Shown here piece after piece: positions 6,253-6,273 of a DNA stretch of 19,162 bases (the first letter of the stretch is position 1; every line of letters starts with the position of its first letter). Source of the stretch: Escherichia coli (GTDB lineage: Bacteria; Pseudomonadota; Gammaproteobacteria; Enterobacterales; Enterobacteriaceae); assembly GCF_003334255.1 (NCBI RefSeq), contig NZ_QOWU01000072.1. The stretch is one strand, 5' to 3'. A model generated the notes under the pieces. It was given only the letters and a program-made list of their open reading frames with translations. It did not search any database and was not told the DNA's origin. A program made the position numbers and the translations under genes.

Positions 6253-6273
6253 AATGATAATAATTCTCATTAT
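6253..6273. promoter_or_regulatory. Fur box in the gpmA promoter region
   Basis: aaTGATAATAATTCTCATTAT resembles the Fur consensus GATAATGATAATCATTATC; it lies about 25-45 bp upstream of the gpmA start. Confidence 0.6.

Follow-up and report, generated by a model that had tools for sequence, protein, structure and literature searches.

A Fur operator of two overlapping sites at the gpmA promoter of Escherichia coli

The gpmA locus of Escherichia coli raises the question of whether the AT-rich, Fur-box-like sequence just upstream of this glycolytic gene is a Fur operator and, if so, how Fur bound there would act on gpmA transcription. The window, that is, the whole stretch of 19,162 nucleotides that was analysed, is E. 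coli chromosome and carries, in this order, two tRNA genes, nadA, pnuC, zitB, aroG, gpmA, galM, galK, galT, galE, modF, modE and modABC. The gpmA gene occupies positions 5475–6227 of the minus strand (open reading frame and RefSeq annotation; identical to MG1655 b0755), between aroG (4265–5317, plus strand) and galM (6429–7469, minus strand). Its annotated start, which opens the protein MAVTKL, is the ATG at 6227, and the listed open reading frame begins at an upstream TTG at 6242. From gpmA through galM, all 1995 bases are identical to those of K-12 MG1655, with window position 6227 corresponding to NC_000913.3 position 787595, and data from K-12 are thus directly applicable. The gal operon lies just upstream of gpmA in the same direction, and a terminator scan placed its terminator, a hairpin and T-run after galM, at 6406–6422 (minus strand), which marks the upstream boundary of the gpmA control region.

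Other features of the window are noted in passing. Between the convergent aroG and gpmA genes, a hairpin with a 10-bp stem and A-run and T-run flanks (5427–5453, AAAGCCGACTC...GAGTCGGCTTT) looks like a bidirectional terminator shared by the two genes. At the start of the window, two tRNA genes with identical scores (1–73 and 209–281) are overlapped or followed by two matches to the Rfam RtT family (8–175, 60 bits; 315–440, 46.7 bits), and together these close a tRNA cluster that precedes nadA.

Positions 6253–6273, 26–46 nt upstream of the gpmA ATG, read aatgataataattctcattat, which is the sequence quoted in the original prediction of a 19- to 21-bp Fur site at this place. The location holds, and the extent has to be revised, as the quoted coordinates slightly clip a double site of 25 bp. 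The complete operator, as read from the sequence and from two overlapping PWM sites, is the palindrome TTTAAT-GATAAT-A-ATTCTC-ATTATA at 6250–6274, in which four NATWAT-like hexamers flank a central A (6262). Within it, the 19-bp site A (TTTAATGATAATAATTCTC, 6250–6268) is read on the plus strand and the 19-bp site B (TATAATGAGAATTATTATC, 6256–6274) on the minus strand; the two sites overlap with an offset of 6 bp and are two readings of one palindrome. Overlapping sites 6 bp apart on opposite strands are the arrangement expected for two Fur dimers bound on opposite faces of the helix. The inner portion, TGATAAT-A-ATTCTCA (6255–6269), forms a 7-1-7 inverted repeat in which 13 of the 14 arm positions match TGATAATnATTATCA, the 7-1-7 model of the Fur box reportedly going back to Baichoo and Helmann in 2002. 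The inverted-repeat architecture by which a Fur operator is recognized, a 7-1-7 unit together with sites offset by 6 bp, is therefore present.

The match to known Fur sites is also strong by statistical measures. The 19-bp Fur consensus GATAATGATAATCATTATC agrees with 6256–6274 on the minus strand at 16 of 19 positions, the sole match with at most three mismatches in the 19-kb window, and such a match was found in none of 200 dinucleotide-preserving shuffles. Scoring with a Fur PWM, which had been proposed as a check on the prediction, was carried out with a matrix of 19 columns obtained by hard EM from 17 Fur-repressed promoter regions of MG1655 (fepA-fes, fepD-entS, fepB-entC, fhuA, fiu, fhuE, tonB, sufA, cirA, mntH, exbB, bfd, feoA, ryhB, sodA, fecI and fhuF), with gpmA left out. 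Because the consensus served as the seed of the matrix, and EM rather than footprints picked the training sites, its scores are supporting evidence and not a gold standard. The scan returned site A (23.0 bits) and site B (20.6 bits) as the two highest scores in the window. By comparison with the leave-one-out scores of the training promoters (7.3–23.4 bits), 23.0 bits exceeds 16 of the 17 and 20.6 bits exceeds 12 of them, and by this PWM the gpmA site ranks among the very best Fur sites. The exact score distribution gives p values of 7e-9 for the 23.0-bit site and 6e-8 for the 20.6-bit site, and the expected number of chance sites per window at 23.0 bits is 0.0003 with a genomic background and 0.0025 with an AT-rich one. 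Either a consensus match or a high PWM score is looked for in a Fur operator, and 6250–6274 displays both. The third-best score in the window, 16.25 bits, belongs to ATTTTTGGTAACGATTATC at 10021–10039 (minus strand) inside galE; depending on the background, 0.05–0.4 such matches are expected per window, and this one is probably due to chance.

We then place the operator relative to the gpmA promoter, for which a mapped transcription start is available. The main start, P1, was determined by 5'RACE in several strains and by genome-wide pyrosequencing as the A that closes ...GGCAATATAATGAGAA (Olvera et al. 2009, PMC2759082). Mapped onto the window through the quoted sequence ...TATAATGAGAA, this A is position 6264 of the minus strand, 37 nt upstream of the ATG. 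The P1 –10 hexamer, listed with the promoter in Table 1 of Olvera et al. 2009, is a perfect TATAAT at 6269–6274 (minus strand) and is at the same time the outermost Fur hexamer. A spacer of 17 bp separates it from the –35 hexamer TTGCTG (6292–6297, minus strand), which matches TTGACA at 3 of 6 positions. A sigma-70 consensus scan that required at least 4 of 6 matches per hexamer returned no promoter in 6150–6500, and it missed P1 because the –35 hexamer matches at only 3 of 6; the promoter is established instead by the published start site and by conservation. Positioned in this way, the operator at 6250–6274 spans –10 to +15 of P1 and covers both the –10 hexamer and the start site, an overlap with the core promoter of the regulated gene that is characteristic of a repressing Fur operator. 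Further downstream, the Shine–Dalgarno region GAGGAGT lies at 6234–6240 (minus strand), and its GGAG is kept in all 80 of the closest loci described below.

Comparison across species reveals that the operator is maintained together with the promoter. A protein-guided scan with one genome per species, in which the 80 closest GpmA loci were kept (93–100% identity), covered Enterobacteriaceae and, as the single exception, Samsonia (Pectobacteriaceae). The paired Fur sites, with their 6-bp offset on opposite strands, are kept in 79 of the 80. In Samsonia erythrinae (locus L036), the best Fur score upstream of gpmA is 9.2 bits, for TATAATGAAGTCAGTTATC, and on the basis of this one species from outside Enterobacteriaceae Fur control of gpmA may be limited to Enterobacteriaceae. 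An anchored, ungapped profile of 74 distinct upstream sequences displays near-maximal conservation over GGCAATATAATGAGAATTRTTATCATT and falls sharply in the promoter spacer and in the 5'UTR. TATAAT is invariant in these 74 regions, and this part of the conservation is expected for any promoter; conservation, however, extends a further 19 nt past TATAAT. The –35 hexamer, as TTGCYG, keeps its spacing across species while the spacer sequence varies. Substitutions within the box often bring it closer to the consensus (position 8, G to T; position 12, T to C). The operator has thus been retained in orthologous promoters to a degree that neutral drift would not allow.

Six species carry an insertion of 40–125 nt in the 5'UTR, namely Klebsiella michiganensis, K. 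indica, Raoultella terrigena, Intestinirhabdus alba and two other Enterobacteriaceae (loci L062, L073 and L075 at about 1340–1490; L043, L078 and L030 in the same region). In these species the box lies 78–163 nt from the ATG and is still attached to the –10 hexamer, indicating that it belongs to the promoter and not to the translation start. The K. indica insert has about 72% identity over about 112 nt to unannotated intergenic places elsewhere in 2765 E. coli genomes and is therefore a dispersed repeat, which may resemble an ERIC/IRU element. Of 5426 complete E. coli genomes, 5424 carry the 61-bp stretch at 6240–6300 with an identity of at least 95%, and in a spread sample of variants the polymorphisms (6244, 6248, 6281, 6293 and 6328) all lie outside 6250–6274.

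Fur binding in vitro and in vivo, as well as Fur-dependent expression of gpmA, has been documented in the literature, as the original prediction had stated. Vassinova & Kozyrev 2000 selected Fur-binding Sau3A fragments in vivo and are credited by Chen et al. with this gene, then named pgm; the same source credits the microarray of McHugh et al. 2003 for gpmA (NAR 2007, PMC2189734). Chen et al. 2007 described a gpmA cluster of five Fur sites over 31 bp whose strongest site (27.4 bits, coordinate 786853, position –35) shares first rank in the E. coli genome with that of yoeA, and an oligonucleotide with the gpmA site was gel-shifted by 150 nM purified Fur (PMC2189734). With gpmA then at 786818–786066, coordinate 786853 lies 35 nt upstream of the ATG and corresponds to window position 6262, the centre of the palindrome. 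The comparison with published ChIP data that had been suggested for this site is likewise favourable. In strain CFT073, Banerjee et al. reported a ChIP-seq Fur peak at gpmA (summit 677), and their RNA-seq data gave a 16-fold increase of gpmA in a fur mutant, a change of 1.0 in a ryhB mutant and a 17-fold increase in the double mutant, indicating that the regulation is Fur-dependent and RyhB-independent. In the same study, the columns for an MG1655 ortholog and for comparison of the 5' sequence are both positive for gpmA, and 34 of 35 core-genome operons were regulated alike in MG1655. A ChIP-seq/RNA-seq study of 2023 again counted gpmA among the known direct Fur targets, and in Salmonella Typhimurium gpmA was 5.6-fold up in a fur mutant during anaerobic growth. 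Fur-dependent expression, for which a reporter fusion had been proposed, is therefore borne out by published RNA-seq and microarray data rather than by such a fusion. Our reading of the literature turned up neither a DNase I footprint nor an in vitro transcription experiment on the gpmA promoter, and a full-text search for gpmA together with ChIP-exo returned nothing relevant.

The operator is accompanied upstream by further conserved sequence. Olvera et al. 2009 (PMC2759082) also reported a second start, gpmAP3, which lies 75 nt from the ATG and was detected by 5'RACE alone; its proposed promoter, CTTACA-18-TATGGT, has its start at 6302 (minus strand) and would place the Fur operator at about +29 to +53 of the P3 transcript. 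The conservation profile marks a block that coincides with this promoter (CTTACACTGCGCCACTATTTTCGCTATGGTTA, 6308–6339, minus strand). Among 81 upstream regions, 58 have the exact anchor GCTATGGT in common, and in these the block is almost unchanged; it lies at a fixed distance of 41–42 bp from the Fur box and is as conserved as that box. Moreover, the ‘spacer’ of the proposed P3 promoter, CACTATTTTCGC, is as conserved as its hexamers, which hints at the site of a further regulator. Judged by eye, the block does not appear to fit the consensus sequences of CRP, MntR or ArcA. Two more conserved blocks, ATTCACAA and ACAGACAAAA, are found further upstream, to about 6375. It is conceivable, albeit rather unlikely, that the operator belongs to a conserved control region of greater extent in which 6308–6339 is either an undescribed co-regulator site or the P3 promoter with Fur acting as a road-block.

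Three other explanations of the operator-like block were weighed against Fur repression of P1. An AT-rich promoter might merely look like a Fur box and bind Fur without consequence, since the Fur consensus is itself AT-rich and contains –10-like hexamers; with an AT-rich background, about 0.6 sites of at least 23 bits and about 5 of at least 20.6 bits are expected genome-wide, and the sequence by itself is therefore no proof of function. Such a resemblance would, however, have to produce a pair of high-scoring sites that overlap with the canonical offset of 6 bp, and to be conserved for 19 nt beyond TATAAT while the spacer and the UTR drift. Published data refute it, namely the gel shift, the selection in vivo, the ChIP peak and the 16-fold increase in the fur mutant, so that its probability is close to nil. 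It could also be argued that the block is maintained chiefly for a role to which Fur binding is secondary, for instance as a 5'-terminal RNA element of the mRNA or as the site of another AT-binding regulator. Bases 6250–6264 are indeed transcribed from P1, and gpmA is a known target of FnrS, an anaerobic sRNA and published gpmA regulator that provides a separate layer of control on the same mRNA. The predicted FnrS–gpmA duplex, however, lies downstream of the Fur box, running on the minus strand from 6250 to 6198 through the 5'UTR and the first codons of gpmA, and centres on the Shine–Dalgarno sequence and the start codon, leaving the first 14 nt of the mRNA unpaired. This prediction ignores intramolecular structure, and the long duplex is only indicative; with its position on the Shine–Dalgarno sequence and start codon, we rejected FnrS pairing as the cause of the box conservation. 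ArcA was likewise rejected as a direct gpmA regulator, its published effect having been attributed to FnrS. Against a different primary function also speak the species with a 5'UTR insertion, where the block stays with the –10 hexamer and not with the Shine–Dalgarno sequence, the frequent substitutions toward the Fur consensus, and the Fur-dependent, RyhB-independent regulation, which together make this explanation very improbable.

The remaining explanation accepts Fur binding and differs in its consequence, in that Fur would not occlude P1 and would instead block elongation from P3 or from gal read-through, or act mainly with another factor. The reported start 75 nt from the ATG, with its highly conserved promoter block and with the operator lying within the P3 transcript, is in keeping with such a mode of action, as is the gal operon just upstream in the same direction. 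Yet the operator lies over the –10 and +1 of P1, whose start was confirmed by two methods, and this is the classical position for repression; P3, by contrast, was detected by one method, 5'RACE, and read-through from gal would have to pass the terminator-like hairpin that follows galM. Binding that spares P1 is thus hardly probable.

We conclude that 6250–6274 is, with high probability, the Fur operator of the E. coli K-12 gpmA promoter, at which Fe2+-Fur on two overlapping sites represses P1 by occlusion. In the presence of iron, Fe2+-Fur dimers would occupy the 19-bp sites A and B, which overlap around position 6262, and the bound Fur would cover the –10 hexamer, the start site and the first 15 transcribed bases of P1, leaving RNA polymerase unable to bind or to open the promoter. 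When iron is scarce, Fur would leave the operator and gpmA transcription would rise about 5- to 16-fold. Occlusion of the promoter is the best-supported reading of the mode of action of Fur here, and it is deduced from the position of the operator. A point against full occlusion is that gpmA is strongly expressed in iron-replete cells, which indicates that repression is partial; the upstream P3 may escape Fur repression or may merely be road-blocked.

The identity of the regulated enzyme suggests a physiological role. GpmA is a cofactor-dependent, metal-independent phosphoglycerate mutase, whereas its isozyme GpmM/GpmI needs Mn2+, and both S. aureus and Salmonella depend on the metal-independent GpmA for glycolysis when starved of metals. 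By analogy with these organisms, the likely purpose of Fur control in E. coli would be to supply more of the metal-independent mutase and to sustain glycolysis under metal shortage and limited respiration. Derepression of gpmA would then be in line with a heavier dependence on glycolysis where iron-dependent respiration is restricted, and would parallel the switches to SodA and NrdEF that Fur controls. Radin et al. 2019 and a paper on E. coli gpmA and H2O2, neither of which mentions Fur, are used here for the metal-independence rationale only. Fur control of gpmA ties iron sensing to central carbon metabolism, with E. coli and its relatives raising a metal-independent phosphoglycerate mutase when iron is scarce.

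The gpmA operator is already known, from the literature of 2000–2007 and from later studies of the Fur regulon, and gpmA is among the best-documented Fur targets outside iron uptake. The present analysis adds the mapping of the P1 start onto the operator, the description of the 25-bp palindrome and its footprint across 80 species. The site is recognizable from sequence alone, is among the strongest Fur sites and is kept in nearly every Enterobacteriaceae species sampled, and it is therefore a good positive control for a scanning pipeline.

Our comparison with known systems reveals that the operator described here and the gpmA (pgm) Fur site of Vassinova & Kozyrev 2000, McHugh et al. 2003 and Chen et al. 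2007 are the same DNA with the same centre, with no substantive difference between them. The operators of ryhB, sodA, fepB-entC, fhuF and mntH belong to the same class of 19-bp motifs, scoring 23–24 bits as compared with 23.0 and 20.6 bits at gpmA, and they share with gpmA the placement of overlapping sites over core promoter elements and repression by Fe2+-Fur. In contrast to these, the target at gpmA is a glycolytic enzyme and not a function of iron uptake or storage. The gpmA cluster is furthermore compact (about 25–31 bp), whereas that of yoeA is a long polymerised array of 12 sites over 95 bp. As with sodA (Mn-SOD) and nrdHIEF (Mn-RNR), which belong to the same core regulon, Fur represses at gpmA an alternative enzyme that needs no iron. 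Unlike in those two cases, the enzyme GpmA works without any metal, and the metal of its counterpart GpmM/GpmI is Mn and not Fe, which would point to metal sparing or a glycolytic up-shift rather than to the replacement of an iron enzyme.
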